Positions 1,920 through 28,030 of a DNA stretch of 28,394 nt are shown here, piece after piece; positions within the stretch are counted from its first letter, which is position 1, and every line of letters starts with the position of its first letter. The position numbers and the translations under genes were made by a program. This DNA is from Gammaproteobacteria bacterium (GTDB lineage: Bacteria > Pseudomonadota > Gammaproteobacteria > SZUA-152). The stretch lies in NCBI GenBank assembly GCA_050118235.1, contig JASFLF010000001.1, forward strand, positions 1 through 28,394, written 5' to 3'. Below the pieces are notes generated by a model, which was given only the letters and a program-made list of their open reading frames with translations, had not been told where the DNA came from and searched no databases.

Positions 1920-1983
1920 TTGTTGAGATTATTTTCCAGTGCACGTGGCGCCCCATAAGTGCGCTTCCACAAAAACGGATAAT

Positions 1984-3231
1984 ATGAATAGAAGGCAATT
2001 TCTTAAATATTCCACGGGCATAGGCGCCATGAGTCTGGCGCTGAATGGTTGTCGCTACTGGCCCGCAGAAGGATTATTAAATCCGTGTTTGCCGGACAAC
2101 CTACCCCACGAGCTAAAAAATCATGATGTGGTGCAACGCGCATGGCAGGGCATAGACGTTGATCAGTTCTGGGATTGTCATACGCATTTAATCGGCTTGG
2201 GCGACAGCGACTCGGGAATCTGGGTCAGCCCGCATATGCGATCGTTGTTGCATCCCATTCAATTTACGCAGTTTACATTTTATCTAAACGGTTCCTGTGC
2301 GGATTCGAATGATGCGCAAGAGACGCAAACCATTGATGAGCGATTCGTTAACCGCTTAGTACGATTGCATGATGATTTTCCTAAAGGGGCGAAATTCATG
2401 TTGATCGCATTTGAGCATCATTATGACGGCGAAGGCAAACAGCGTGATGATCTAAGTCCTTTTTATACGCCGAATCACTATGCCGCTAAAATAGCCGGAC
2501 AGTATCCGCAGCGGTTCGAATGGATCGCATCGGTACATCCTTATCGTGAAGATTGTCTTGCCATGTTGCAATGGTGCGTGCGCAACGGAGCCCGCGCAAT
2601 CAAGTGGTTACCGGGTGCTATGGGAATCGATCCAGGCTCGCGAAAATGCGATCAATTTTATGAAGCTGTGGCCAAGTACAGGATTCCGCTGTTAACTCAT
2701 AGCGGCGAAGAGCAAGCGGTTAGTGTCAGCGGCAGCGAAGGTTTGAATAATCCTTTGTTAATGCGTCGTGCCTTGGAACATGGTGTGCGGGTGATATTTG
2801 CGCATTGTGCATCCCTGGGGGAAAGTGTGGATTTAGACAAAGGCCCTAATGGGGCTCGGGTCAGCAATCTGGATTTGTTTTATCGATTGTTGGCAGAGAA
2901 GAATTACCAAGAGCGGCTGTACGGCGATATCTCGGCGATTACCCAAGTTAACCGAGACAAAGCCGTCATTGAGGCCATTTTCACGCGTACTGAATGGCAC
3001 GCCAATCTGATCAACGGTTCGGATTACCCTTTACCGGGAGTGTTTCCAATTATTTCCACTCAGAGTTTTGCGGATTGGGGATATATTCAACAGAGGGAGG
3101 CCGATGTTTTGGCGCAAATTCGCCGTTTTAATCCTTTGTTATTCGATTTTGTGCTTAAGCGTATCATTAAAGTCAATGCCAACAGATTGGCCCCGGCTGT
3201 TTTCGAATCTCGGCGCGTTTTTTCCGCCTGA
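1984..3231 (+). CDS. Amidohydrolase-family metalloenzyme with Tat signal, possible lipoprotein
   Basis: The ATG at 1984 gives MNRRQFLK (twin-Arg), a hydrophobic stretch and LNGC (atypical lipobox). Metal-binding motifs: DCHTH, THSGEE, AHCAS, GSDYP. The ORF-track start at 1939 is probably too early. Confidence 0.8.
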   Translation: MNRRQFLKYSTGIGAMSLALNGCRYWPAEGLLNPCLPDNLPHELKNHDVVQRAWQGIDVDQFWDCHTHLIGLGDSDSGIWVSPHMRSLLHPIQFTQFTFYLNGSCADSNDAQETQTIDERFVNRLVRLHDDFPKGAKFMLIAFEHHYDGEGKQRDDLSPFYTPNHYAAKIAGQYPQRFEWIASVHPYREDCLAMLQWCVRNGARAIKWLPGAMGIDPGSRKCDQFYEAVAKYRIPLLTHSGEEQAVSVSGSEGLNNPLLMRRALEHGVRVIFAHCASLGESVDLDKGPNGARVSNLDLFYRLLAEKNYQERLYGDISAITQVNRDKAVIEAIFTRTEWHANLINGSDYPLPGVFPIISTQSFADWGYIQQREADVLAQIRRFNPLLFDFVLKRIIKVNANRLAPAVFESRRVFSA

Positions 3232-6575: not shown

Positions 6576-9500
6576 TTGCGTATGTCTCAACATTTTCAGC
6601 ACAACGCCAAGGATAGGCAAAGTCAGCCGCTGTTTCTTGGCACTTGGATTGTTGTCGTCGTTTTGCTCATCACCGCTTGTACAGGGGGTGGGGGAGATGG
6701 CGGTTCGCCACCAGTCCGTAAATCGGCGACTCCCCAAACGCCGGCCAACCTCAACGCCATTGCCGGCAATCAACAGGTGACACTAACTTGGGGGACAGTG
6801 CCCGACGCATCCGGTTATACGCTGTATTGGAATAATACGCCTGATGTGGCTAAAGATTCTTCCCATGTGGTGCGAAACGTCTCTCCAGGCTATCGGCATC
6901 AGGAATTGACCAATGGTCAGGTTTATTTTTATCGAATTGCCGCCGCTAATGGCAGCGGCGAGAGTTTGCCCTCCGATGAAATCACCGCGATGCCCGGGGG
7001 ACACACACTTGCCGATACGGTGACGGATGCTAATCTTCGCCATTGTTTAACGAACTACAGCACCAGTACACCTGTTTATGCCGATACGATTAGCGGTGAA
7101 GTGGATTGCTCTTACCGCGGTATAAATGATCTTGAGGGCTTGCAGTTTTTAGCGGCACTGACGGCGCTTAATTTAGCCGGTAACAATATTCAAAATATTT
7201 CCGCATTAAGTCAGTTAAGTTCACTGACCACTTTGGACTTAAGTGGTAATCAACTTAACCGTGACGCGGAAGCTGTGTTAGAGGCTTTGTTCCAATTTGG
7301 GGCCTTGACGCAGTTGTCGATAGCAGGCAATCCGCAGCTGTCCTGCGCGTTCATCGATGCTATGCTCGATACCATTTCAGCTACCGATATTTCCGCCAGC
7401 GAAGCTGGTGTGAATTGCGCCGTTTACAGTCAAACACCGGCACCCATAGGTACATTAACGCCGGTGGCCGCTAAAGCCATCGGCGGCAATGAGAAGGTAA
7501 CCGTGACATGGGAGGAAGTGACTGGTGCTTCGCATTACAACATTTATTGGGGTACCGCAAGTGGAATAACCACAGAGTCGGAAAACGTCATCGCCGGTGC
7601 ACATCCGCCCTATGTGCATTCGGGATTGTCTAACGGTGCTACGTATTACTATGTGGTCACCGCGGTGTCCGGTGGCGCTGAAGGGCGGCTATCACCGGAA
7701 GTCTGGGCGACGCCCAGCAGTGAAGGTACGGCCATTGACGGTGTGTTTACCGATACCAACTTGCAATCCTGTGTTTCGGACTACGCGGTCGGCAAAGGGT
7801 GGACATTTACTCATGAGATAACCGGTTACCTGGACTGTTCCTCTCGCGCCATTTCGGATTTGCAGGGCATTGGGCAGTTGCCGGAGCTGTCCCAGTTGAA
7901 CGTCATGAATAACGCCATTGCCGATACCACGCCGCTGGCGACATTGACCAATTTGACGCGGCTGTATATCAGTAACAATCAAATCGATAGTCTAGTTGGG
8001 CTGGCGGATTTGTCATCATTGAATTTCCTTAACTTAGGGCGTAACCGTATCACCACGGTAAATGCGCTGGCGGGATTAGACAATCTCACAGCGTTGTATC
8101 TCAACAGCAATCAAATAGTGGACGCGGGAGCGTTGGCCGGCCTGATAAATTTGCAGATACTGGACTTGCGCGAAAACTCTATAGGTGGCGAGGATATTGG
8201 TAACATCGATGAATTGGCGAGCCTGGTAAATGCAAGCTCTATCTTGTTAGCGGGTAATTACGATATTGCGTGTACGGAACTGGCTGCATTGTTTACCGCC
8301 CTGGGGCCGAATATTGTGGATATCGCTGCCAACGTGGCTAGTATTGATTGTATAGGCGTGCCCAATCCTCCGCTAAATGTCAGTGCGGCCGGCGGCAATC
8401 AGCGCGTTATTCTAACTTGGGATAATATTATCAATGCGTCGGCGTATAACATTTATTGGTCCAATTCGCCCGCGGTAAGCATATCGTCCGCAAACAAGAA
8501 AGCCAATGTTCGCTCCGGCTACCAACACACGGCGCTAACCAATGGGCTTGCGTACTACTATGTAGTGACAGCCGAAAATGCCAGCGGTGAGAGTGAAATA
8601 TCACAGGAAGTTTCCGCCGTGCCTCAGCAAGTGGTGATCGCCGGTTTGTTTGCCGACAGTAATTTACAAACCTGCATAGAAGAGCTGGCTTCGATGAACG
8701 GATGGACTACGGCTGAGCAAGTCAGCGGGGTAGTAAATTGTTCCGCCAGGGCAATTTCCGATGTAAGCGGAATTGAGCATTTAACCGGCGTTACGGCATT
8801 ATCCTTAAATGAAAACAATCTCACCGACATTACCGCCATAGGCTATCTGGATAAGCTTCGTTCGCTGTCGCTGTACCGCAATAACATCACCAGTGTGGAT
8901 GCGCTGGTTAATATGACGGCTTTGCGTGATTTGTTTATTAGCAATAATCTCATCAGCAAAGTACACCCCGTGGGGAGCCTGCCGCAGTTGCAAGTGGTGG
9001 ATTTGCGCAATAACCGGATTGGCAGTAGCGGCAGTGGCGGTGTGGACCAACTCACTTCGCTGACAAACGCCACACTGATCAGCGTGTCTGGCAACCCATC
9101 TATATCGTGTATTGAATTGCAGAATCTGCTGGACACACTGGGTGCCAGTGTAATTGATATGAACAGCGCCATAGCCGGCGAGAATTGCACCCGGCCTTCG
9201 CTAATACCCGCGGGTATCCAGGCAGTGGGCGGTAACAGCCAAATCAGCTTACGCTGGGTTGAAGTGCCGGTGGCTACTGCGTATAACATTTACTGGGCTA
9301 CGGTATCGGGCGTGACACCTGCCAGTGGGCAGAAGGTAACCGTAACGTCACCACAATATGCGCACACCGGTTTGGATAACGATACGACGTATTATTATGT
9401 GATTACGTCGCAGTTGGCCAGTGGACAGAGCGCGCCGTCTGAAGAGCTTGCCGCACGACCTTCGGCCAATGGTGTACCGTTGGCGGGCTTGTTTCCCGAC

Positions 9501-10241
9501 CGGGCATTGGCCAAATGTGTGAATGCGCTTGCCAACAGCAATGGCTGGTCTTATGCGCTGGAGGTCAATGGTATATTAAATTGTTCCGCACAGCAGATTA
9601 CGGACCTGAGCGGCTTGGAACAGTTAAGCAACTTGAGCGTGTTGCGCTTGGGCAGTAATAACATTGAAGATATTTCTTCTGTGGCGTCGCTGGGCAATTT
9701 GACTTTCTTGGACTTATACAACAATGCCATTAGTGACGTCAGTGTTTTGTCTGGTCTTAACACTTTGCGCACCTTGTATCTGCATAATAATAATATTTCC
9801 GATATCAGTGCATTGGCGGGGTTGAACAATCTGGACTATTTGATCCTGGATGAAAACGCGATCAGTGATCCCACGCCGATTACCGGCATCAACACGCTAA
9901 CACGCTTGTTTTTTCGAGCCAATTTGTTAACCGACGTCAACGCTTTTGATCAGTTGACGCAGTTGACAGAGCTTTATTTGAACAACAACAGCATTACCGA
10001 CGTGAGCGCGTTGGCGGGTATGGTGTATTTGCAACAACTGGATTTACGTAATAATCATATTGGTGGTCAAGGGGTGGGCAATGTCGACACGTTATCGAGC
10101 CTCACCAATGTCAGCAAGATACGTCTATCGGGAAACAACTTGATTTCCTGTACCGAGTTAACCTCTTTGATCGCGGTGTTGGGGCCCAACGCTACCGACC
10201 TGGGTGAAGCCCAGCTAGGGGTTAATTGTCAGGCACCGTGA
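6576..10241 (+). CDS. Large lipoprotein with four tandem FN3 + leucine-rich-repeat modules (internalin-like LRRs)
   Basis: Hydrophobic WIVVVVLL, then lipobox ITAC, then a GGGGDGG linker. Four FN3-like units (GNxxVxLxW...YxxYW...YYY/F) are each followed by DxxLxxC...C-capped LxLxxNxI repeats ending GNxxISC...C. Start may be 6576 or 6582. Confidence 0.88.
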   Translation: MRMSQHFQHNAKDRQSQPLFLGTWIVVVVLLITACTGGGGDGGSPPVRKSATPQTPANLNAIAGNQQVTLTWGTVPDASGYTLYWNNTPDVAKDSSHVVRNVSPGYRHQELTNGQVYFYRIAAANGSGESLPSDEITAMPGGHTLADTVTDANLRHCLTNYSTSTPVYADTISGEVDCSYRGINDLEGLQFLAALTALNLAGNNIQNISALSQLSSLTTLDLSGNQLNRDAEAVLEALFQFGALTQLSIAGNPQLSCAFIDAMLDTISATDISASEAGVNCAVYSQTPAPIGTLTPVAAKAIGGNEKVTVTWEEVTGASHYNIYWGTASGITTESENVIAGAHPPYVHSGLSNGATYYYVVTAVSGGAEGRLSPEVWATPSSEGTAIDGVFTDTNLQSCVSDYAVGKGWTFTHEITGYLDCSSRAISDLQGIGQLPELSQLNVMNNAIADTTPLATLTNLTRLYISNNQIDSLVGLADLSSLNFLNLGRNRITTVNALAGLDNLTALYLNSNQIVDAGALAGLINLQILDLRENSIGGEDIGNIDELASLVNASSILLAGNYDIACTELAALFTALGPNIVDIAANVASIDCIGVPNPPLNVSAAGGNQRVILTWDNIINASAYNIYWSNSPAVSISSANKKANVRSGYQHTALTNGLAYYYVVTAENASGESEISQEVSAVPQQVVIAGLFADSNLQTCIEELASMNGWTTAEQVSGVVNCSARAISDVSGIEHLTGVTALSLNENNLTDITAIGYLDKLRSLSLYRNNITSVDALVNMTALRDLFISNNLISKVHPVGSLPQLQVVDLRNNRIGSSGSGGVDQLTSLTNATLISVSGNPSISCIELQNLLDTLGASVIDMNSAIAGENCTRPSLIPAGIQAVGGNSQISLRWVEVPVATAYNIYWATVSGVTPASGQKVTVTSPQYAHTGLDNDTTYYYVITSQLASGQSAPSEELAARPSANGVPLAGLFPDRALAKCVNALANSNGWSYALEVNGILNCSAQQITDLSGLEQLSNLSVLRLGSNNIEDISSVASLGNLTFLDLYNNAISDVSVLSGLNTLRTLYLHNNNISDISALAGLNNLDYLILDENAISDPTPITGINTLTRLFFRANLLTDVNAFDQLTQLTELYLNNNSITDVSALAGMVYLQQLDLRNNHIGGQGVGNVDTLSSLTNVSKIRLSGNNLISCTELTSLIAVLGPNATDLGEAQLGVNCQAP

Positions 10242-14141: not shown

Positions 14142-14576
14142 TTAGCCGTGATGAAACAACCGTTGCCACCAGCGGCGACGGCTTTGCGGCGGTGGAAACG
14201 CATGGGGTAAGTCTTCGGGCTTGGTTTGAGACAGCACCCATCCCGGTAGCGGTGGGTGATCGCTAAATCCGCAACTCACGCCCAGGTTATTGGGATCAAA
14301 GATTTTTATAAAAGTGGGATTTTGCAATTCGTCAGCATAAACAATACCACAATAGTCTTCTTTGTGTTCGGATCGCAACAATTCATCTATTTCACTGATA
14401 AACCGCTGCAGCGCGTCCGAGGATGAAGGTTCCGTGGGTGGTGTTTCCCCCACTTGATATATAAACCATCGTTGGTCCTGGTGTTTGCGTACTGTGTTCC
14501 ACAGTTCATCCAGTTGTGGCCACCTAAGTACACCGTAAAAACTACCTTTGAATTGTTCTAAGAATTTTTTCGCCAT
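14142..14576 (-). CDS. Conserved hypothetical protein
   Basis: The 144-153 aa ORF reads as a real protein (FKGSFYGVLRWPQLDELW, EHKEDYCGIVYAD, FDPNNLGVSCG, C-terminal RRWWQRLF). Start is 14576 or 14603. Confidence 0.7.
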   Translation of the reverse strand: MAKKFLEQFKGSFYGVLRWPQLDELWNTVRKHQDQRWFIYQVGETPPTEPSSSDALQRFISEIDELLRSEHKEDYCGIVYADELQNPTFIKIFDPNNLGVSCGFSDHPPLPGWVLSQTKPEDLPHAFPPPQSRRRWWQRLFHHG

Positions 14577-14662
14577 GTATTGTGTATAACCTCGATGTTT
14601 CACTGAATTATCAATTAATTACCCTTCCATTAACTATTTGATCAGTTCCTTATGCAAACTTT

Positions 14663-14798: not shown

Positions 14799-15980
14799 AT
14801 GAATGAAGCGGCCATAAAACTTGCTGTGACTGGAATGGACCATAGATCACAACTTTTATTTACTAAAACAGTGCAATTGCAGTTACAAGGAATTTGCCGA
14901 ATTGTCGACGTGCAGGAAGCGGAAGTGGTTCTGATCGACATGGATTCGGCGAATTCCGAAGAATATTGGATTTCATTGAAAGATAATTTTCCAGAACTAC
15001 CGGTAATTGCTCTGTCGATTCGGCCGGTCAATGAAAAAAACACACTTTATTTGCGTAAGCCTATAAAAATTAACTCCTTGATAACTACGTTGCGAATATT
15101 GTTTCCAAAACGATTTATGGCGAAGGGAAACGAATTCAACAAGCAAAAAAATGTAGACGGGCAGTGTTCAAATAAGCAAGACAAGTCGTTAAATGCGAGA
15201 ACAACTATCGCAGATGTATTCAATAACACAGTGGATAAATCTTCGAATGTCGTTGCACTTTCAGACAAGGTATCGCCCGGAGAATGCATACTCGATGTGT
15301 TCGATGCTTCCTCTCATTTGATTTACTATGTCATGCAAGCTAGTTTGCAGGCAAAGGCGTTGAAAAAACTCGCCAAAATTTCACTGTGGAATGGCAGGAT
15401 CATTTTATGTAACTTTAGTCCCAACGTCATAATTACAAATGTTTCAGAAGGAATGCTGAGAAGTCTGGCCATCGTTCAATTGAATGAGAGTCAAACGAAA
15501 ATAACCATAGAGCATGTCGAACCGGACATATTGGATACGATTAATCCCAAGAAAGATCCGGCGTATAAAGAATTGAACGTGGAAAGTTTTATCTGGCAAT
15601 TGGCGTTGTTGACAGCAAGGGGAAGAGTGCCTTTGGAACTGCACGACAATATGTTTTTTGTTGATAAGCCGGTGTACATGGAATATTGGCCGAATTTAAC
15701 GCGACTTATGCCAGTACCCTATGCACAGCAGATAACGGCGTTGCTGGTTTTGCAGCCCAGGACTTTTAAAGAAATCTCTAAGACCTTGGCGATCGATGTA
15801 AAGCATGTCGCAGACTTATTCTTTGCGGCCGCGATGATAGGGTGTGCCGGTCAGGCTAAACGACCAGCCGATAAATTATTCGCACCGTTCGAGGTGGAAC
15901 AACACAAACACCGCAAAGTACTGTCTTCCATCATGAACAGACTACGCAGTATTGCTATGGGCAACGCGCAAAGTGCGTAA
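14799..15980 (+). CDS. Hypothetical protein with N-terminal receiver-like domain and C-terminal winged-helix-like region
   Basis: The N-terminus has VVLIDMD, PVIALS and YLRKP at receiver beta3/beta4/beta5-like spacing. The later part has FIWQLALLTARGRVP, YWPNLTRL and an HTH-like RTFKEISKTLAIDVKHV. Confidence 0.65.
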   Translation: MNEAAIKLAVTGMDHRSQLLFTKTVQLQLQGICRIVDVQEAEVVLIDMDSANSEEYWISLKDNFPELPVIALSIRPVNEKNTLYLRKPIKINSLITTLRILFPKRFMAKGNEFNKQKNVDGQCSNKQDKSLNARTTIADVFNNTVDKSSNVVALSDKVSPGECILDVFDASSHLIYYVMQASLQAKALKKLAKISLWNGRIILCNFSPNVIITNVSEGMLRSLAIVQLNESQTKITIEHVEPDILDTINPKKDPAYKELNVESFIWQLALLTARGRVPLELHDNMFFVDKPVYMEYWPNLTRLMPVPYAQQITALLVLQPRTFKEISKTLAIDVKHVADLFFAAAMIGCAGQAKRPADKLFAPFEVEQHKHRKVLSSIMNRLRSIAMGNAQSA

Positions 15981-15994
15981 ATATTGGAGAGATC

Positions 15995-16531
15995 ATGAGT
16001 TCACATAAAATTATTTTTACCGGTCCGGTCGGTGCGGGTAAAACCACTTCCATTGCGGCCATCAGCGATGTCGAGCCGTTCGTTACCGAACAAATTGCCA
16101 CAGATGCTACCAAGAACAGGAAAGAACAAACTACAGTAGCGATGGACTATGGCATGTTAAAGCTGGAGAACAACGAGCGAATCCATTTATACGGTACGCC
16201 GGGGCAGGAACGATTTAATTTTATGTGGGATATTTTGACCGACGGCGGAGTTGGGCTTATTTTATTGATCGATAATAAGCGAGCGAATCCCTTGGATGAT
16301 TTGTCCTTTTTTCTCCAGTCTTTTAAAAATTTTATTGAAGAGACTGCCGTTGTCGTCGGAGTAACCCGCATGGACATTGCATGCAAACCCACTTTGGAAG
16401 ACTATCGCAGGGTCATGAGGGAACTGAACATGAATATCCCAATCTTCGAAGTTGATGCTCGAGAAAGAAAAGACGTTATCTATCTGGTTCAAACCCTATT
16501 GTATTGTCTTGATCCCAGGATTGCGGCTTAG
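15995..16531 (+). CDS. Small GTPase, MglA / conservon CvnD (ATP/GTP-binding) type
   Basis: G1 GPVGAGKTT, G2 TTVAMDYG, G3 GTPGQERFNFMW, G4 TRMD, G5 DAR. GGAGA ribosome-binding site. Confidence 0.9.
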   Translation: MSSHKIIFTGPVGAGKTTSIAAISDVEPFVTEQIATDATKNRKEQTTVAMDYGMLKLENNERIHLYGTPGQERFNFMWDILTDGGVGLILLIDNKRANPLDDLSFFLQSFKNFIEETAVVVGVTRMDIACKPTLEDYRRVMRELNMNIPIFEVDARERKDVIYLVQTLLYCLDPRIAA

Positions 16532-16565: not shown

Positions 16566-17900
16566 GTGAGTGAATTCGTACTAGTTTTACAGGACTACGG
16601 GGTTGGTTTTGGTGAGAAAATCATCTTAAGCTCTGTCAATCTCGAAATTCCCGAACGGGGTGTTTTTTTGTTGATGGGGCCGGCTGGTACAGGCAAGTCA
16701 ACACTGCTAAGAACAATCGCCGGCATAAATGACGCAAATCCATCCCTGCGGACCTGGGGTTCAGCGAGCTATGCGGGAGAGCCTTTAAGTGAAAGTGAAC
16801 TGCCGGTGCTGGTGGCTCAAAACACAAAATTATTGCTCGCCAATGTGTTGGACAACGTTATTCACGACTTACCCGAACGACGGTCACTGTCAAGAATTCA
16901 ACAAATCGACATGGGGAAAAGACTATTGGTACATAGCGGATTGAGTGAACTCTCGGAAGATCTGGAAAAAAGCGTGGTGGATCTACCGCTTCACTTGCAA
17001 AGACACCTGGCTATTGCTAGATCCGCTGCCGCCAATCCTAAGTTACTTCTAATTGATGAGCCCACTACCGGAGTCGAGGAACAGGTTTGTAAATCATTGA
17101 TTGAATATATTAAGCAAGAATCCGAACGCCGGGCGGTTCTTGTCGTCGTGCATAATCAGAAACACGCGAATTTGTTTAAAGGAAAAATGGCGCTATTAGC
17201 AGGCGGATGGGTCCATGAGAGTAAGGATACATTGCGTTTTCTTAGTAATCCGGAATCCTCTGCCGGCAAATGTTTTGTGCAGACCGGATCGTGTGATGTG
17301 CCATCACCTTCCGCAAAACTGGAAGAATTAAGTGATGAGGCAATCAGCAAATACAATCCTCCGCCACTATGTGAGGCGGCAAAACAATATGTCAGTGACG
17401 CGTTTGGCCCGCGTAATTTTCTATGGCTGAAAAAAGGTCGTTTGGCAGGCACCCCTAAGCCCGGATTGTTAACCGATATTGATCATGATTTGAAAGCACT
17501 TAAAAGAGTTGGAGTGACAGTATTGGTAACGTTGACTGAGTCGCCCATGGACAAAGAAATTCTGGATGAATACGAGATTCGTAATGTGTTTTTCCCAATT
17601 GATGACATGGGGTCTCCCAATATCGAGGATGCCAAAAAACTGTGTTATCGAATCAGCCGACTGTTGCAAAAAGATGAAGTGGTTGCTATGCATTGTAAGG
17701 CCGGATTAGGAAGGACCGGAACAATGTTGGCTGCGATGTTGATCTGGGATGGGCTGTCCGCTTTAGAAGCCTTAGAAAGTACTCGACGCATTGAACCGAG
17801 ATGGGTGCAATCTGATGACCAGATAGTATTTTTAGAGGAGTTCGAAAACAGTGTTGACGCCGATAGAGGAAGTTTAACAAAAGTATCGTCTTGTGTGTGA
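16566..17900 (+). CDS. Fusion of an ABC-type ATPase domain and a dual-specificity/tyrosine (CX5R) phosphatase
   Basis: Walker A GPAGTGKST, Q-loop LVAQ, Walker B LLLIDEPTTG and H-loop VVVHN. C-terminal FPIDDMGSP and HCKAGLGRTG. Likely start is the GTG at 16566, because the ORF-track start overlaps the GTPase gene. Confidence 0.88.
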   Translation: MSEFVLVLQDYGVGFGEKIILSSVNLEIPERGVFLLMGPAGTGKSTLLRTIAGINDANPSLRTWGSASYAGEPLSESELPVLVAQNTKLLLANVLDNVIHDLPERRSLSRIQQIDMGKRLLVHSGLSELSEDLEKSVVDLPLHLQRHLAIARSAAANPKLLLIDEPTTGVEEQVCKSLIEYIKQESERRAVLVVVHNQKHANLFKGKMALLAGGWVHESKDTLRFLSNPESSAGKCFVQTGSCDVPSPSAKLEELSDEAISKYNPPPLCEAAKQYVSDAFGPRNFLWLKKGRLAGTPKPGLLTDIDHDLKALKRVGVTVLVTLTESPMDKEILDEYEIRNVFFPIDDMGSPNIEDAKKLCYRISRLLQKDEVVAMHCKAGLGRTGTMLAAMLIWDGLSALEALESTRRIEPRWVQSDDQIVFLEEFENSVDADRGSLTKVSSCV

Positions 17901-18087: not shown

Positions 18088-18492
18088 ATGTCATTAGATC
18101 AAGTATTAAACGAAGCGATGAAACAGGTTCCGGAATGTGTCGCTGCAGGTTATGTGGATTTATCTACTGGTATGTTGCTGGGCGTCAAAACTGTCGACTC
18201 CCATCCTGCCGAAGTCTTGGAAATAGTCGCAGCGGCGACTTCGGATATGTTTCAGGGGGCTAATGTTACATTGATCGAAAACATGTTTAAAAAGGCTCGA
18301 GGCACATCGGATGATGCACGGCACTACTTCCAAGAGATGGTTGTAATGAGCGAGAACTTGCTGCATTTGTTTATGCGATGTAAAGGAAATGAAGACCATG
18401 TTGTGGTTTTCGTATGTCGGAAATCCGCAAATATGGGTATGGTATTGACGAAAGCAAAAACTGCGTTGCCGTCGCTGGAGGCTGCTGTATAA
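18088..18492 (+). CDS. Roadblock/LC7-like protein (divergent)
   Basis: AGGAG ribosome-binding site at 18076-18080 precedes the ATG at 18088. The 134 aa have a roadblock-like helix/strand pattern (VAAGYVDLSTGMLLG, EMVVMSENLLHLF, NMGMVL). Confidence 0.7.
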   Translation: MSLDQVLNEAMKQVPECVAAGYVDLSTGMLLGVKTVDSHPAEVLEIVAAATSDMFQGANVTLIENMFKKARGTSDDARHYFQEMVVMSENLLHLFMRCKGNEDHVVVFVCRKSANMGMVLTKAKTALPSLEAAV

Positions 18493-18659: not shown

Positions 18660-19070
18660 ATGGCATCTGCAACAAGTTCGATAGAATCGGGGCGTAGTGA
18701 AGTTGCCATTGATAAAATGATTCGCCCCATATTACGAAGGCTAAATAGCGCTTCCGGACAAATTGAGGCGTCGTCCGTCATGTCGAGAGATGGAATAGGG
18801 GTGGCGTCAGTATTAGCCGATGGTGTAGATCCAGATCGTTTAGGGGCTATGTGTGCATCATTGTTGTCTCTGGCGGATACCACTGCGAAAGAATTGCAGA
18901 GGGGAAAAGTCAACCAGCTAGTATTGGAAGGAGAGAACGGCTACGTATTGATTATCCATGTCGGCACCAAAGCCGTGTTGGGTATCGTTACGCGAAAGAA
19001 TGCCAACCTGGGAATGGTGTTTGTGGAAGCGAAGAAAACCGCTGAAGAGATTCTTAGAATACTTCCATAG
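18660..19070 (+). CDS. Roadblock/LC7 (MglB-like) protein
   Basis: SSVMSRDG, DRLGAMCASLLSLA, LVLEGENGYVLI and NLGMVFVE are typical of roadblock/LC7 proteins. Confidence 0.88.
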   Translation: MASATSSIESGRSEVAIDKMIRPILRRLNSASGQIEASSVMSRDGIGVASVLADGVDPDRLGAMCASLLSLADTTAKELQRGKVNQLVLEGENGYVLIIHVGTKAVLGIVTRKNANLGMVFVEAKKTAEEILRILP

Positions 19071-19104
19071 TGATTTTCCTAAAGGTGAAAGAGCAAGTGG
19101 AGAA

Positions 19105-19515
19105 ATGGTTATGTGTGGTTCTACGAGTAAAAATAAAGCGAATATAAATTGTGAAGAGGGTAGACGCCTAGGCTGCGGAACATTCTGTTGCCGATTGCTG
19201 GTTCGGTTGGATCCCAATGAAATGGAACCTACAGATGATGGAATGCCATCTAAAGGCTTTGTAGACAAACTGCCCGATGGTAATTGCATCCACTTCCACC
19301 CAGACAAGCAGATTTGTAAAATTTGGCACAAACGCCCCAGAGTATGCCGAGAATACGAGTGTAATTCGGATTTTTTATTGCAGGTTGTACTAAGAAACGG
19401 TTTTAGTACGTTAGGGAAACTCGCAAAACAAGCGTCGAAGTCCTTCATACCCAAAGAAACCTACATCGATATTCCATTGCTTGACGACGACCATAACGAT
19501 CAAACACAGTCTTAG
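19105..19515 (+). CDS. YkgJ-family cysteine-cluster (Zn or Fe-S chelating) protein
   Basis: C...GCGTFCC, GNCIHF, CKIWHKRPRVCREYEC. GGAGA precedes ATGs at 19105 and 19111; the ORF-track start overlaps the roadblock gene. Confidence 0.8.
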   Translation: MVMCGSTSKNKANINCEEGRRLGCGTFCCRLLVRLDPNEMEPTDDGMPSKGFVDKLPDGNCIHFHPDKQICKIWHKRPRVCREYECNSDFLLQVVLRNGFSTLGKLAKQASKSFIPKETYIDIPLLDDDHNDQTQS

Positions 19516-23580: not shown

Positions 23581-25485
23581 CTACATTAATTGTTCCCAAC
23601 GCCCATAACAATTTTCCAATTCAATGGTGATTTGTTCAAACCTCGCAAGTGTGGTTGTTATTGTGTGGTTGTCTTGTTTATAGAAATCAGGTTGACCCAT
23701 GGCGTGCTGAAGATCTGCTTGTTCTTTTTCCAGGAACTCAATGCGCGCGGGCAATTCGTCCAACTCGCGTTGTTCCTTATAACTGAGTTTTTTCTTTTGA
23801 GACTTTGCTTCAGATTCCGATTGGATTGGTGCTGGTTTTTCAGCATTTATATGGGTGTCTACTTGATATTTTGCGGCGGTGGGAGTCGGTGACGGACGTT
23901 GTCTTATCCAGTCATCATAACCGCCGACATATTCTTCGACCCGCCCATCTCCTTCGAATACGATGGTGCTGGTGACCACATTGTCCAGGAACGCCCGGTC
24001 ATGGCTTACGACGATAATCGTGCCATTGTAATCGCCGAGTAACTCTTCCAATAGCTCCAGTGTTTCGATATCAAGATCGTTGGTGGGTTCGTCCAAGACC
24101 AATAAATTCGCTGGTTGAATAAACAGCCGCGCCAATAACAAGCGATTGCGCTCACCGCCGGACAACGATTTAACCGGGGAGCGTGCCCGCTGTGGTGGGA
24201 ATAAAAAGTCTTGCAAATAACCCATCACATGACGGCTCTGACCGTTGACGGTGATCATATCACTGCCTTGGTTTAAGTTATCCACCACCGTGCGCTCCAG
24301 ATCCAACTGACTGCGTTGTTGATCAAAATAAGCGGTTTGTAACCGGGTACCCAGTTCAACAATACCATTGTCGGGTTGAAGTTCGCCCAGGAGTATTTTG
24401 ATCAGTGTACTTTTACCTGAACCATTGGGACCAATGATGCCGATACGGTCGCCGCGCATGATGGTAGTTGAAAAATCGTTAATGACGCTTTTATCGCCAA
24501 ATTGTTTGCTAATGTGTTGCGCTTCGATCACGATCTTACCGGATTGCTCTCCGGCGTCTAATTGCATGTTTACTTTGCCCATGGTATCAAGGCGCTGGTG
24601 TCTTTGCTCCCGCAATGATTTTAAGGCGCGTACCCGCCCCTCATTGCGCGTTCGCCGTGCTTTAATGCCTTGGCGAATCCAGACTTCTTCTTGCGCCAGT
24701 TTTTTATCGAATTTGGCGTTATGCTGTGCTTCGGTGTCCAGTCGCTCCTGTCTTTTACGTAAATAGTCATCGTAATCGCCCGGCCAGGAGGTCAATATAC
24801 CGCGATCCAGTTCCAAAATCCGGGTTGCCAACCGGCGCAAAAAGCTCCGATCGTGAGTAATAAACAATAACGCCCCATTGAAGCCCAGTAGGAATTCTTC
24901 AATCCAGGTGATGGCTTCAATATCCAGATGGTTGGTTGGTTCGTCCAACAATAATAGTTCCGGTTGCAAAACCAAGGCCCGCGCCAACATTACTCGGCGC
25001 TTATAACCCCCCGATAACGCCGCCATATTGCTGTCACCAGGTAACTCCAGTTTCGTAAGAACGGTATTGACGCGTTGTTCCAAGCGCCAGCCGTCACAAG
25101 CATCAATGGATTGCTGCAATGAAGCCATTCGGTTAGTGAGCGAGTCGCTGGGTTCGCTCGCCAGTTTTTGTGAGACATGATGGTAGTCCGCCAATAAACG
25201 CCCGGCTTCTTCCAATCCCGAAGCAACCACGTCATACACTGTAAGGGATTCGTCAGGCGGGACATCTTGTTCAAGATAGGCGATGCGCAGGTGTGGTTGC
25301 TGCCAAACATCACCTTCATCCAAGTTGATGGTTTTGTTGAGGACCCGTAGCAAGGTGGATTTCCCCACACCATTGCGGCCCACCAAACACACCCGTTCAC
25401 CGGCGTCTATTTGCAGATTGGCTTTATCCAGCAACGGTACATGGCCAAAGGCCAGGGAAGCGTTTTCCAGTTTTATGAGAGGCAT
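23581..25485 (-). CDS. uup: ABC-F family ATPase Uup
   Basis: Two ABC cassettes (GRNGVGKST/LSGG/LDEPTNHLD and GPNGSGKST/LSGGE/LDEPTNDLD), WIRQGIKARRTRNEGRVRAL, and C-terminal KLSYKEQREL coiled coil. No transmembrane segments. Confidence 0.95.
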   Translation of the reverse strand: MPLIKLENASLAFGHVPLLDKANLQIDAGERVCLVGRNGVGKSTLLRVLNKTINLDEGDVWQQPHLRIAYLEQDVPPDESLTVYDVVASGLEEAGRLLADYHHVSQKLASEPSDSLTNRMASLQQSIDACDGWRLEQRVNTVLTKLELPGDSNMAALSGGYKRRVMLARALVLQPELLLLDEPTNHLDIEAITWIEEFLLGFNGALLFITHDRSFLRRLATRILELDRGILTSWPGDYDDYLRKRQERLDTEAQHNAKFDKKLAQEEVWIRQGIKARRTRNEGRVRALKSLREQRHQRLDTMGKVNMQLDAGEQSGKIVIEAQHISKQFGDKSVINDFSTTIMRGDRIGIIGPNGSGKSTLIKILLGELQPDNGIVELGTRLQTAYFDQQRSQLDLERTVVDNLNQGSDMITVNGQSRHVMGYLQDFLFPPQRARSPVKSLSGGERNRLLLARLFIQPANLLVLDEPTNDLDIETLELLEELLGDYNGTIIVVSHDRAFLDNVVTSTIVFEGDGRVEEYVGGYDDWIRQRPSPTPTAAKYQVDTHINAEKPAPIQSESEAKSQKKKLSYKEQRELDELPARIEFLEKEQADLQHAMGQPDFYKQDNHTITTTLARFEQITIELENCYGRWEQLM

Positions 25486-25776: not shown

Positions 25777-26304
25777 ATGTTGAAAGATAAGCAAAAATTT
25801 CTTCACTGGATAGACAACTGCCATGCGGCGCTGTTTAAACACGCCTTCTGGATGACAGGCAACCGTGCGCTGGCGGAGGATCTGGTGCAAGAAACTTTTT
25901 ATCAGGCCTGGAAAAACCGCCACAGTATTGAGAACGAAGAGAATCCGTTGCCCTGGTTTTTAACCGTACTGCGACGGGAGGTATATAAGGAATATCAGCA
26001 AGCGCGTTTTGATGCTTTGTCCGTGAGCGAGCAACACATAGAAAATTCCAGCAACTTTTCGGAAAGCGATCTTGATACGCTGATTGATTTGGGCAATGGC
26101 TTGATGTCTTTGAGCGCCCGACAACGGGAATTATTGCTCTTGCATGGTCTGCACGGATTCACTTATGAACAAATTAGTGAGCAACTAAGCATCCCCATAG
26201 GCACGGTAATGAGCCGAATCGCCAGAGCGCGCCAATCGCTTCGAGCGTTTTACACGAAAGATGATATAGATAAGGTGATTGTACCTTTCAAAAAGAGAAA
26301 GTGA
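25777..26304 (+). CDS. ECF (sigma-24 family) RNA polymerase sigma factor
   Basis: Region 2 AEDLVQETFYQAW and region 4 GFTYEQISEQLSIPIGTVMSRIARAR; 175 aa. Confidence 0.92.
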   Translation: MLKDKQKFLHWIDNCHAALFKHAFWMTGNRALAEDLVQETFYQAWKNRHSIENEENPLPWFLTVLRREVYKEYQQARFDALSVSEQHIENSSNFSESDLDTLIDLGNGLMSLSARQRELLLLHGLHGFTYEQISEQLSIPIGTVMSRIARARQSLRAFYTKDDIDKVIVPFKKRK

Positions 26305-26316
26305 GGTTTAGAAGTA

Positions 26317-26934
26317 ATGGACCAAGAACAACGCGAAGCACAAACACTTCATAAGTTGCTCAACGCACCTAAAGTGCCCGAAGATTTGGCGGCAAAACTC
26401 AAGAACAATCTGGAAAAGCAGATGGTTAAGCCAGAACAGCTTGGAAACACAGCACGACGATACCGAAAGTGGGTGTACGGTTTAGCGGCTAGTTTGACCA
26501 TTGCAATTGTGGTGGCCGTGCAAATCAAGACCGAACCGGAATTGGTCTCACTTGCCTATAGGCACGCCGAGGAAGAAGCCCATCTAGTGGGAGCCATTGA
26601 TGGCGGCTATCAGTCCTGGTTCGATAAGGCCGGTTTGCAGATTCCCTCTGAAGCAAACGCCATTGTTTTAAGTAAAAACTGCGCGCTAGGGGAACAAAAA
26701 ACCAAACATCTGAGATTCGATTTACCCAATAAGGGAACAATCAATTTGTTTCTGTATCAAGACGGCGCGGGTCTGCCGGGCCGGGTACAAGCTGATGGCA
26801 CTATAGATGGCCAGTCTTGGATAAGTATTTCCCCGCGAGAGGATATCCGTTTGCTCGCTTTATACGATTCAACTGTCAGTAAAGCGAAAATCACCCAAAT
26901 CATTCAATCCATGTTTGAAGAACACTCCGCTTAG
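26317..26934 (+). CDS. Putative membrane anti-sigma factor (loosely resembles DUF3379-type proteins)
   Basis: Directly follows the ECF gene. Short cytoplasmic N-terminus, one TM helix (WVYGLAASLTIAIVVAV), then a periplasmic domain (NCALGEQKTKHLRF...INLF). Confidence 0.7.
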   Translation: MDQEQREAQTLHKLLNAPKVPEDLAAKLKNNLEKQMVKPEQLGNTARRYRKWVYGLAASLTIAIVVAVQIKTEPELVSLAYRHAEEEAHLVGAIDGGYQSWFDKAGLQIPSEANAIVLSKNCALGEQKTKHLRFDLPNKGTINLFLYQDGAGLPGRVQADGTIDGQSWISISPREDIRLLALYDSTVSKAKITQIIQSMFEEHSA

Positions 26935-26965
26935 CAGTTAAACCAACCACTACAAAGGAACAATA

Positions 26966-28030
26966 ATGAAAAGACTATCCATTCTGTTGATAAGCGCCAG
27001 TATAGGCCTGTCGTTATTGACGCCCATTACCCATGCGCAAGCGCCGGATATCGGGCCATTGCCACCGGTGCCGGTGAATCCGGACAATCCACCTACACCG
27101 GAACGGATCGCATTGGGGAAGAAACTGTTTTTTGATAACCGCATATCCGGCAATGGCACCATGAATTGCAGCAGTTGTCATATTCCCGAAACCGGCTGGA
27201 CGCTACCAACGAAGTACTCAGTGGCCAACGAAGGCTTCGTCGAGCGCCGCAATTCGCCCACATTGCTAAACGTCGGTTATAACAAAGCCTTGATCTGGGA
27301 CGGGCGCGCGCCCAGTTTGGAAAAACAAGCGGTGGGATCCACTAAAAATCCGGTGCATAAAGGTCAGGACATCGACAAGCTGATGAAAATTCTCAATGAT
27401 GATGCAGAGATGGTCAAAATGTTCCAGACAGCTTACGGCAGCAAACCCAATCCCGGCGATTATGGCAATGCGATTGCCGTGTTTCAACGCCATACCATTA
27501 TCACAGGAGAGAGTCCGTTCGACCGTTACATGAAAGGCGATGAAAAAGCTATCTCCGAAGCGGCCGTCAACGGCATGACATTGTTCAAAGGCAAGGGCGG
27601 TTGTATCCAATGTCACAACGGCCCGAACTTCACCGACTCGGATTTTCATAATATCGGTCTAAAGCGTAACCCCGATTTTGACAAAGAAGAATTTCAAAAA
27701 ATCTTGAAATTCGATGCCAAACGCATGGGTTTAAAAGAATGGGAAACCATCAACGACGACCCCGGACGTTATTTAAAAACCCACAACATGGAAGACTGGA
27801 AAAAATTCAAAACGCCAACTTTACGAAACTTACCCGATACCGCTCCTTACATGCATGACGGCCGCTATGCGACCATAGACGAGGTAATCGATCATTACAA
27901 CCGGGGCGGGGATAAAGCGAAAAATCAAGACAAACGTATTAAACCGTTGAAATTGAGTGATAAAGAAAAGCAGGAATTGAAAGAATTTTTGCTGTCCTTG
28001 AAAGGCGATCTTCCAAAAATACTGTATTGA
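26966..28030 (+). CDS. Periplasmic di-heme cytochrome c peroxidase / MauG family protein
   Basis: Signal peptide, LGKKLFFD, two CxxCH motifs (CSSCH, CIQCH), RNSPTLLN, WDGRA and FKTPTLRN...APYMHDG. Confidence 0.92.
   Translation: MKRLSILLISASIGLSLLTPITHAQAPDIGPLPPVPVNPDNPPTPERIALGKKLFFDNRISGNGTMNCSSCHIPETGWTLPTKYSVANEGFVERRNSPTLLNVGYNKALIWDGRAPSLEKQAVGSTKNPVHKGQDIDKLMKILNDDAEMVKMFQTAYGSKPNPGDYGNAIAVFQRHTIITGESPFDRYMKGDEKAISEAAVNGMTLFKGKGGCIQCHNGPNFTDSDFHNIGLKRNPDFDKEEFQKILKFDAKRMGLKEWETINDDPGRYLKTHNMEDWKKFKTPTLRNLPDTAPYMHDGRYATIDEVIDHYNRGGDKAKNQDKRIKPLKLSDKEKQELKEFLLSLKGDLPKILY

Follow-up and report, generated by a model that had tools for sequence, protein, structure and literature searches.

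We analyzed a 28,394-nt stretch of DNA (hereafter the window; positions 1 to 28,394 of contig JASFLF010000001.1, GenBank assembly GCA_050118235.1) from a gammaproteobacterium of the SZUA-152 lineage, and identified a gene that encodes an ATP-binding cassette (ABC) ATPase fused to a cysteine-based phosphatase and that lies in an operon of MglA/MglB type. The catalytic residues of both active sites are intact, the ABC signature motif has been lost, and the neighbouring genes are fixed. With modest confidence, we lean towards reading the protein as a soluble, transporter-independent ATPase-phosphatase switch that works with the Roadblock-fold protein MglB1, encoded directly downstream, and that is here plugged into a Group 3 MglA operon. 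No published description of the fusion protein was found in the literature searched, which covered the fusion itself, studies of Group 3 MglA, and the link between globins and Roadblock proteins.

The GTG start codon of the fusion gene (Table 1) is the first in-frame start past the stop codon of the upstream GTPase gene (16531), and homologues begin at the same point. The protein comprises a nucleotide-binding domain (NBD; approximately residues 1–240), a conserved linker (residues 240–280) and a dual-specificity phosphatase (DSP) domain (approximately residues 281–430). The domain matches are far beyond chance. Pfam ABC_tran (PF00005) matches residues 21–168 (4.6e-12; 47.1 bits against a gathering threshold of 25), while residues 282–403 match the phosphatase models Tc-R-P (PF22785; 2.2e-21; 76.8 against 27) and PTP-SAK (PF22784; 6.2e-19; 69 against 27); DSPc (PF00782), which belongs to the same clan, scored 29.1, below its gathering threshold of 33.5. 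The best NCBIfam model was that of the phosphate importer ATPase PstB (TIGR00972; 8.9e-31), although its 107.1 bits do not reach the equivalog cut-off of 343.2. The AlphaFold2 model of the fusion has a predicted local distance difference test (pLDDT) score of 85 and a predicted template modelling score of 0.79, and a fold search with this model placed the NBD closest to Escherichia coli PstB (9k3s_C; template modelling score 0.85), followed by MlaF, ArtP and others. An ESM Atlas search with the protein of the fusion locus returned its own family only.

All of the motifs that a first-pass annotation of the window had named in this gene are present on translation of 16566–17900. We assessed their conservation in an alignment of 95 diverse representatives that are 36–54% identical to the query, in which the catalytic residues of the ATPase and the phosphatase are each kept in 93–95 sequences (Table 1). 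The linker motif (family form TGSCxVPSP) and two family-specific invariant motifs, GPRxFxW and EPRWVQSxxQ, are conserved as well. An early reading of the D-loop as degenerate was dropped, as the statistics of the 95 sequences give the family consensus [AT]-G-L-[DE], an ordinary ABC variant.

The signature position tells a different story from the catalytic residues. In the window protein the stretch reads LPLHLQRHLAIAR on translation, and the replacement of LSGGQ by LPLHL, which the first-pass annotation had pointed out, is borne out as a property of the whole family, since the motif is degenerate in all 95 representatives. Leu140 opens it in 89 of the 95; the second position is most often Pro (44), with the canonical Ser in only 16; the third is Leu (40), Arg (12) or Pro (9), Gly lying outside these three commonest residues and occurring in at most 8 of the 95; the fourth is Gly (21) or Ala (20), and the fifth is variable, and beyond it Arg146 is kept in 89. 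In NBD dimers, the signature Ser and Gly of the opposite subunit contact and clamp the gamma-phosphate of ATP.

The first-pass annotation had also compared the phosphatase domain with Cdc14 and PTEN. The catalytic features behind that comparison stand, with an intact CX5R motif and acid loop, and the general-acid Asp lies approximately 30 residues upstream of the P-loop, as expected for cysteine-based DSPs and protein tyrosine phosphatases (PTPs). The affiliation itself did not hold: Pfam found neither the Cdc14 N-terminal pseudo-DSP domain nor the PTEN C2 domain in the fusion, and no best match fell in the Cdc14 or PTEN families. We take the likeness to Cdc14 to be a lead only, confined to the P-loop motif. 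By sequence, the domain is instead nearest to DUSP23-like DSPs of bacteria and archaea, led by PDB 25xa (5.6e-25) and followed by DUSP23 and archaeal PTPs such as Tk-PTP. With DUSP23/VHZ-like and small archaeal cysteine phosphatases (25xa, 2img/4erc, 5z5b; E-values from 5.6e-25 to 1e-11) it shares the HCxxGxGRTG P-loop, the Asp acid loop and its size; it differs from them in being joined to an NBD by a conserved linker and in carrying the EPRWVQSxxQ and GPRxFxW motifs.

The fusion is genuine. The first-pass annotation had allowed for a sequencing artefact, in which case homologues would always be split, but more than 120 full-length homologues (434–469 aa; 53–90% identity), all with both domains and one of them from Sulfurifustis variabilis, came out of a word-indexed search. 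An exhaustive search of 1.84 billion representatives gave approximately 454 clusters (50% identity) at E ≤ 1e-30. Scanning one genome per species revealed relatives in 486 species genomes, mostly of gamma- and betaproteobacteria, and the fusion is present in 6 of 400 genomes sampled evenly from the class. Isolate-derived carriers include Marinobacter, Microbulbifer, Halospina denitrificans, Thiohalophilus thiocyanatoxydans and Exilibacterium; those of Thiobacillus denitrificans are metagenome-assembled genomes only. Searching with the phosphatase half alone recovered mainly fragments from contigs of approximately 1 kb. Two apparent split homologues (P0151 and P0144) were rejected, since both lie on long contigs and are fusions broken by a frameshift, the ABC piece being annotated immediately upstream, and only one protein, from Rhodocyclaceae (P0172), is a true stand-alone DSP.

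Longer relatives (755–1903 aa) carry two NBDs ahead of the phosphatase. Their first NBD retains Walker A, Walker B and the H-loop and ends in a tail (TGGCxVPSP) that is the linker motif of the single-NBD fusion, while the second, which has lost its Walker A Lys-Ser, catalytic Glu and H-loop His, is a dead pseudo-NBD. Since the second NBD is catalytically dead, NBD-to-NBD pairing seems to matter structurally in this family, and non-catalytic NBD folds are tolerated. At three loci with tandem NBDs (L134, L165 and L166), MglB1 follows and there is no adjacent GTPase. The long relatives at these loci (P0227, P0231, P0223, P0226 and P0241) have large N-terminal regions without a Pfam match, and at L166 a Hanks-type kinase and a PAS hybrid kinase are encoded upstream of the tandem-NBD form.

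The constant partner of the phosphatase gene is MglB1, not the GTPase. We counted neighbours at 79 related loci, with denominators that vary by neighbour, and found the MglB1 gene directly downstream of the fusion in 72 of 73 loci and the GTPase gene directly upstream in 69 of 74, at least 20 of these with a 4-nt overlap. Of the operon's proteins, MglB1 is also the best conserved: its mean column identity is 77%, against 64% for the GTPase, 58% for the fusion and 57% for the second Roadblock protein (Robl), and it remains 60–75% identical across the loci of single-NBD fusions, the three tandem-NBD loci and a stand-alone phosphatase locus (L019). Because it follows every form seen, including those without a GTPase, the phosphatase and MglB1 are the core pair and the GTPase is optional.

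MglB1 (134–135 aa across loci) has no Pfam match, and its profile matched nothing significant among PDB sequences. Its Roadblock fold was recognized by profile comparison with Robl (91.8% probability) and from its AlphaFold2 model (pLDDT 88), for which the top Foldseek matches were the Roadblock/LC7 structure 3kye, LAMTOR and MglB. Cys17, Thr35, Ser38, His39, Thr51, His79, Tyr80, Ser88 and His93 are invariant in 34 orthologues, and could be metal, redox or phosphorylation sites; Cys110 is not kept in one distant form. Distant MglB1-like Roadblock paralogues (27–34% identity) occur in another class of the phylum (L142–L164), often as tandem pairs, up to six per genome, beside Robl-like genes; no ABC or DSP gene lies within 1.5 kb of them.

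In the window, the operon runs in the order input protein, GTPase, fusion, MglB1, Robl and CxxCxxCC protein. Group 3 MglA systems, defined in beta- and gammaproteobacteria, consist of a conserved, functionally uncharacterized protein with a receiver-like N-terminus and a winged helix-turn-helix (wHTH)-like C-terminus, an MglA homologue whose G5 motif is DAR and whose G4 motif is deviant (non-NKxD), and one or two homologues of MglB (Wuichet and Sogaard-Andersen, 2014; PMC4316618). The word “phosphatase” is absent from that study, and its mentions of ABC concern ABC-transporter sequences excluded from the analysis. The GTPase of the window resembles Group 3 in its G5 motif (DAR, in FEVDARE, with Asp154 and Arg156 invariant in 34 orthologues), its deviant G4 motif (TRMD, in VTRMD), its gamma- and betaproteobacterial relatives and its two accompanying Roadblock genes. 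The input protein is homologous to the protein encoded upstream in other Group 3 loci, with 21–28% identity where the match covers most of its length and at most 41% over short stretches; its receiver pattern was judged by eye, and its wHTH signal is a weak Pfam match only (E 0.002). Among related loci the input is either a receiver-like protein or a GAF-HWE histidine kinase, and both types end in a common C-terminal domain (15576–15887 in the window), just before the GTPase gene. We read the operon as a Group 3 MglA frame carrying the fusion and MglB1.

In the sample of 400 genomes, 60 carry the GTPase and approximately 6 of those 60 the fusion. At 27 GTPase loci without the fusion (within L104–L131), the order is input protein, GTPase, a 216–227-aa protein and Robl, and MglB1 was detected in none of the 27. 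The 216–227-aa protein occupies the position held in the window by the fusion and MglB1, which therefore form a replacing cassette in about one tenth of the systems; this protein has no annotation (for example L106:2039-2689 and L124:2033-2716). The Robl_LC7 gene, which follows MglB1 in 61 of 70 loci, is common to operons with and without the fusion. Actinobacterial conservons (AGPS; CvnA-D) also combine a small MglA-family GTPase, a Roadblock protein and a sensor in one operon, and the histidine-kinase-type input of some relatives of the window locus adds to the likeness. However, their GTPase belongs to another group, conservons lack the ABC-phosphatase, and neither a CvnA-type membrane histidine kinase nor a DUF742 (CvnC) protein was found in the operon of the window.

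Table 1. Positions and supporting evidence of the features of the fusion gene and its operon in the window.
Feature	Position	Strand	Details
Input protein	14799–15980	+	393 aa; receiver-like N-terminus (by eye), conserved C-terminal domain
MglA-type small GTPase	15995–16531	+	Pfam ATP_bind_1 4.9e-13, Ras 6.5e-07
ABC-ATPase/Cys-phosphatase fusion gene	16566–17900	+	444 aa, no internal stops
Walker A, GPAGTGKST	16677–16703	+	Gly38 95/95, Lys44 94/95, Ser45 91/95
Q-loop, Gln85	16818–16820	+	95/95
Degenerate ABC signature position, LPLHL for LSGGQ	16983–16997	+	Translation; family-wide alignment
Walker B and catalytic Glu, LLLIDE (LLLIDEPTTG), then D-loop TGVE	17043–17060	+	Asp164 95/95, Glu165 94/95
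H-loop, His196 (VVVHNQ)	17151–17153	+	93/95
Post-NBD linker motif, TGSCDVPSP	17283–17309	+	Gly241 93/95, Cys243 81/95
Phosphatase acid loop, FPIDD, general acid Asp347	17592–17606	+	Asp347 93/95, Pro344 86/95
Phosphatase P-loop, HCKAGLGR (Cys377, Arg383)	17691–17714	+	His376 94/95, Cys377 93/95, Gly380 95/95, Gly382 95/95, Arg383 94/95
MglB1, Roadblock-fold protein	18088–18492	+	134 aa; ATG behind AGGAG ribosome-binding site, not GTG 18040
Robl, second Roadblock/LC7 (MglB-type) protein	18660–19070	+	Pfam Robl_LC7 3.5e-15
CxxCxxCC protein, putative Zn/Fe-chelating	19105–19515	+	136 aa; Pfam 7.3e-06; ATG behind GGAGAA

ABC NBDs are known for driving transporters and, in translation and DNA repair, a small number of soluble machines. 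In the mechanism that we favour, the NBD of the fusion would bind ATP without the signature Ser/Gly clamp on the gamma-phosphate from a partner subunit, and would serve not as a motor but as a slow switch governed by nucleotide state, because, in established ABC biochemistry, mutation of the signature Ser or Gly leaves ATP binding in place and cripples closure and hydrolysis. NBD-NBD pairing is probably retained, given that the D-loop is kept and that tandem-NBD relatives exist. The conserved linker could couple the nucleotide state to the phosphatase and thereby set the activity or the access of the attached domain, whose target would be a phosphorylated component of the module. The leading candidate for the partner, and the most plausible substrate, is MglB1, since no other protein goes with all of the architectural forms. 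A complex prediction of the fusion with the GTPase, MglB1 and Robl, built on ordered alignments of 34 rows, reached a score of 0.02, which is below the mark, and is uninformative, speaking neither for nor against binding. Two observations weigh against a slow switch acting on a protein: the operon has no conserved protein kinase, which leaves the source of a phosphoprotein substrate unexplained, and a truly fast ATPase would be equally compatible with an intact catalytic Glu and H-loop His.

An ordinary transport ATPase, with its permease encoded elsewhere and the phosphatase as an add-on regulator of a PstB-like importer, would account for the intact catalytic residues and for PstB being the best match by both family and fold, and in a genome that is 76% complete a distant permease is possible. 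Walker A, the Q-loop, Walker B with its Glu, the D-loop and the H-loop are indeed common to the fusion and to PstB of the E. coli PstSCAB phosphate importer (PDB 9k3s/9k3x). Unlike PstB, the window protein has LPLxx for LSGGQ, a fused C-terminal phosphatase and a place in a signalling operon, with no PstA or PstC at the locus, and its score of 107 bits with the PstB model is far under 343. The statement in the first-pass annotation that no permease lies nearby was upheld on a wider scale: the window contains no ABC permease, its sole open reading frame (ORF) with multiple transmembrane segments being a major facilitator superfamily gene (716–1897) 15 kb away, and of the 52 related loci flanked on each side by 3 kb or more, 47 have no ORF with at least four transmembrane segments within 3 kb. 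The multi-transmembrane ORFs of the remaining 5 loci are not conserved, differ in size and in 4 of 5 cases lie on the opposite strand. No conserved permease partner thus exists across the window and the related loci. With the gene fixed between GTPase and Roadblock genes, a signature that is degenerate family-wide and ATP-site residues that are near-invariant, we consider the transport explanation highly improbable, and we concur with the first-pass annotation that the ABC domain does not serve as a motor for transport.

Two further alternatives concern what each half of the protein does. If the NBD were a structural or nucleotide-binding scaffold that docks MglB1 or the GTPase, as MlaF docks MlaB, and the phosphatase were constitutive, then the degenerate signature, the dead pseudo-NBD of the tandem variants (a non-catalytic use of the NBD within the family), the existence of a stand-alone DSP with MglB1 and without any NBD, and the presence of MlaFB among the top fold matches would all fall into place. 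We nevertheless regard a pure scaffold as quite unlikely: Glu165 (94/95), His196 (93/95) and Gln85 (95/95) equal the Walker A Lys in conservation, which would not be expected were hydrolysis irrelevant. The phosphatase might, on the other hand, act on a non-protein phosphate ester (a nucleotide, lipid or small molecule), in which case the operon would connect such reactions with the GTPase switch or with O2/NO sensing. Such a substrate would suit the lack of a conserved protein kinase and the globin or reductase-globin genes that follow in most loci (see below), and the established substrates of DSP-fold enzymes include lipids, RNA ends and inositol pyrophosphates. The nearest relatives of solved structure are, however, DSPs of the protein-phosphatase type (DUSP23 and archaeal PTPs), and the tight pairing with one Roadblock protein better fits a protein partner, so that we hold this alternative to be unlikely, though not negligible.

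Roadblock proteins are ancient regulators of Ras-like GTPases, as in MglB and Ragulator. The finding here is that of an accessory ATPase-phosphatase/Roadblock cassette in MglA/MglB-type signalling, in which an ABC NBD that has systematically lost its dimer-clamping motif appears to have been recruited to control or accompany a protein-phosphatase domain within a GTPase/Roadblock module. Koonin and Aravind (2000), as cited in PMC4316618, described Roadblock proteins as regulators of nucleoside triphosphatases (NTPases). If a Roadblock protein is indeed locked to an ABC ATPase-phosphatase, this regulation would extend to another class of NTPase, and the Group 3 MglA systems of beta- and gammaproteobacteria, which are poorly understood, would gain a phosphatase arm. 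Carriers in culture (Marinobacter, Microbulbifer, Halospina, Thiohalophilus and Sulfurifustis) could make the system testable. As a tentative and rather doubtful extension, the ABC-phosphatase and MglB1 might form a self-contained, undescribed switch in which the Roadblock protein regulates, or is a substrate of, the ATPase-phosphatase and not a GTPase, which runs with or without MglA, and which in most lineages is wired to O2, NO or redox signals through a globin or reductase-globin gene.

A truncated-globin gene lies 0.5–3.9 kb (mostly approximately 1–1.6 kb) downstream of the fusion in 50 of 62 loci, encoding either the globin alone (approximately 175–206 aa) or a globin fused to a 2Fe-2S/FAD/NAD reductase (approximately 520 aa); examples after the Roadblock genes are L009:10866-12452, L019:7646-9133 and L020:8533-10128. 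Neither the window nor the locus of its closest relative (L133; 69% identity) has a globin gene, and both end with the CxxCxxCC gene; the sole globin of the source genome is a 29%-identical match on contig C477. The CxxCxxCC gene was found in 18 of 62 related loci, in addition to L133. Its longest ORF (18958–19515) overlaps Robl by 113 nt, and the ATG listed in Table 1, which leaves no overlap, is the likely true start.

Outside the operon, two ORFs of the window have no Pfam match, one of 430 aa (1939–3231, forward strand) and one of 153 aa (14142–14603, reverse strand) between ttcA and the GTPase operon. A forward-strand gene at 6576–10241 encodes a protein of 1221 aa that contains three fibronectin type III domains as well as many leucine-rich repeats. 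An extracytoplasmic function (ECF) sigma factor, a DUF3379-like putative anti-sigma factor and a di-haem cytochrome c peroxidase are encoded in a row at 25777–28030 (forward strand). The window also holds a second non-transport ABC ATPase, a canonical soluble ABC-F protein with two ABC_tran domains, ABC_tran_Xtn and ABC_tran_CTD (23581–25485, reverse strand).

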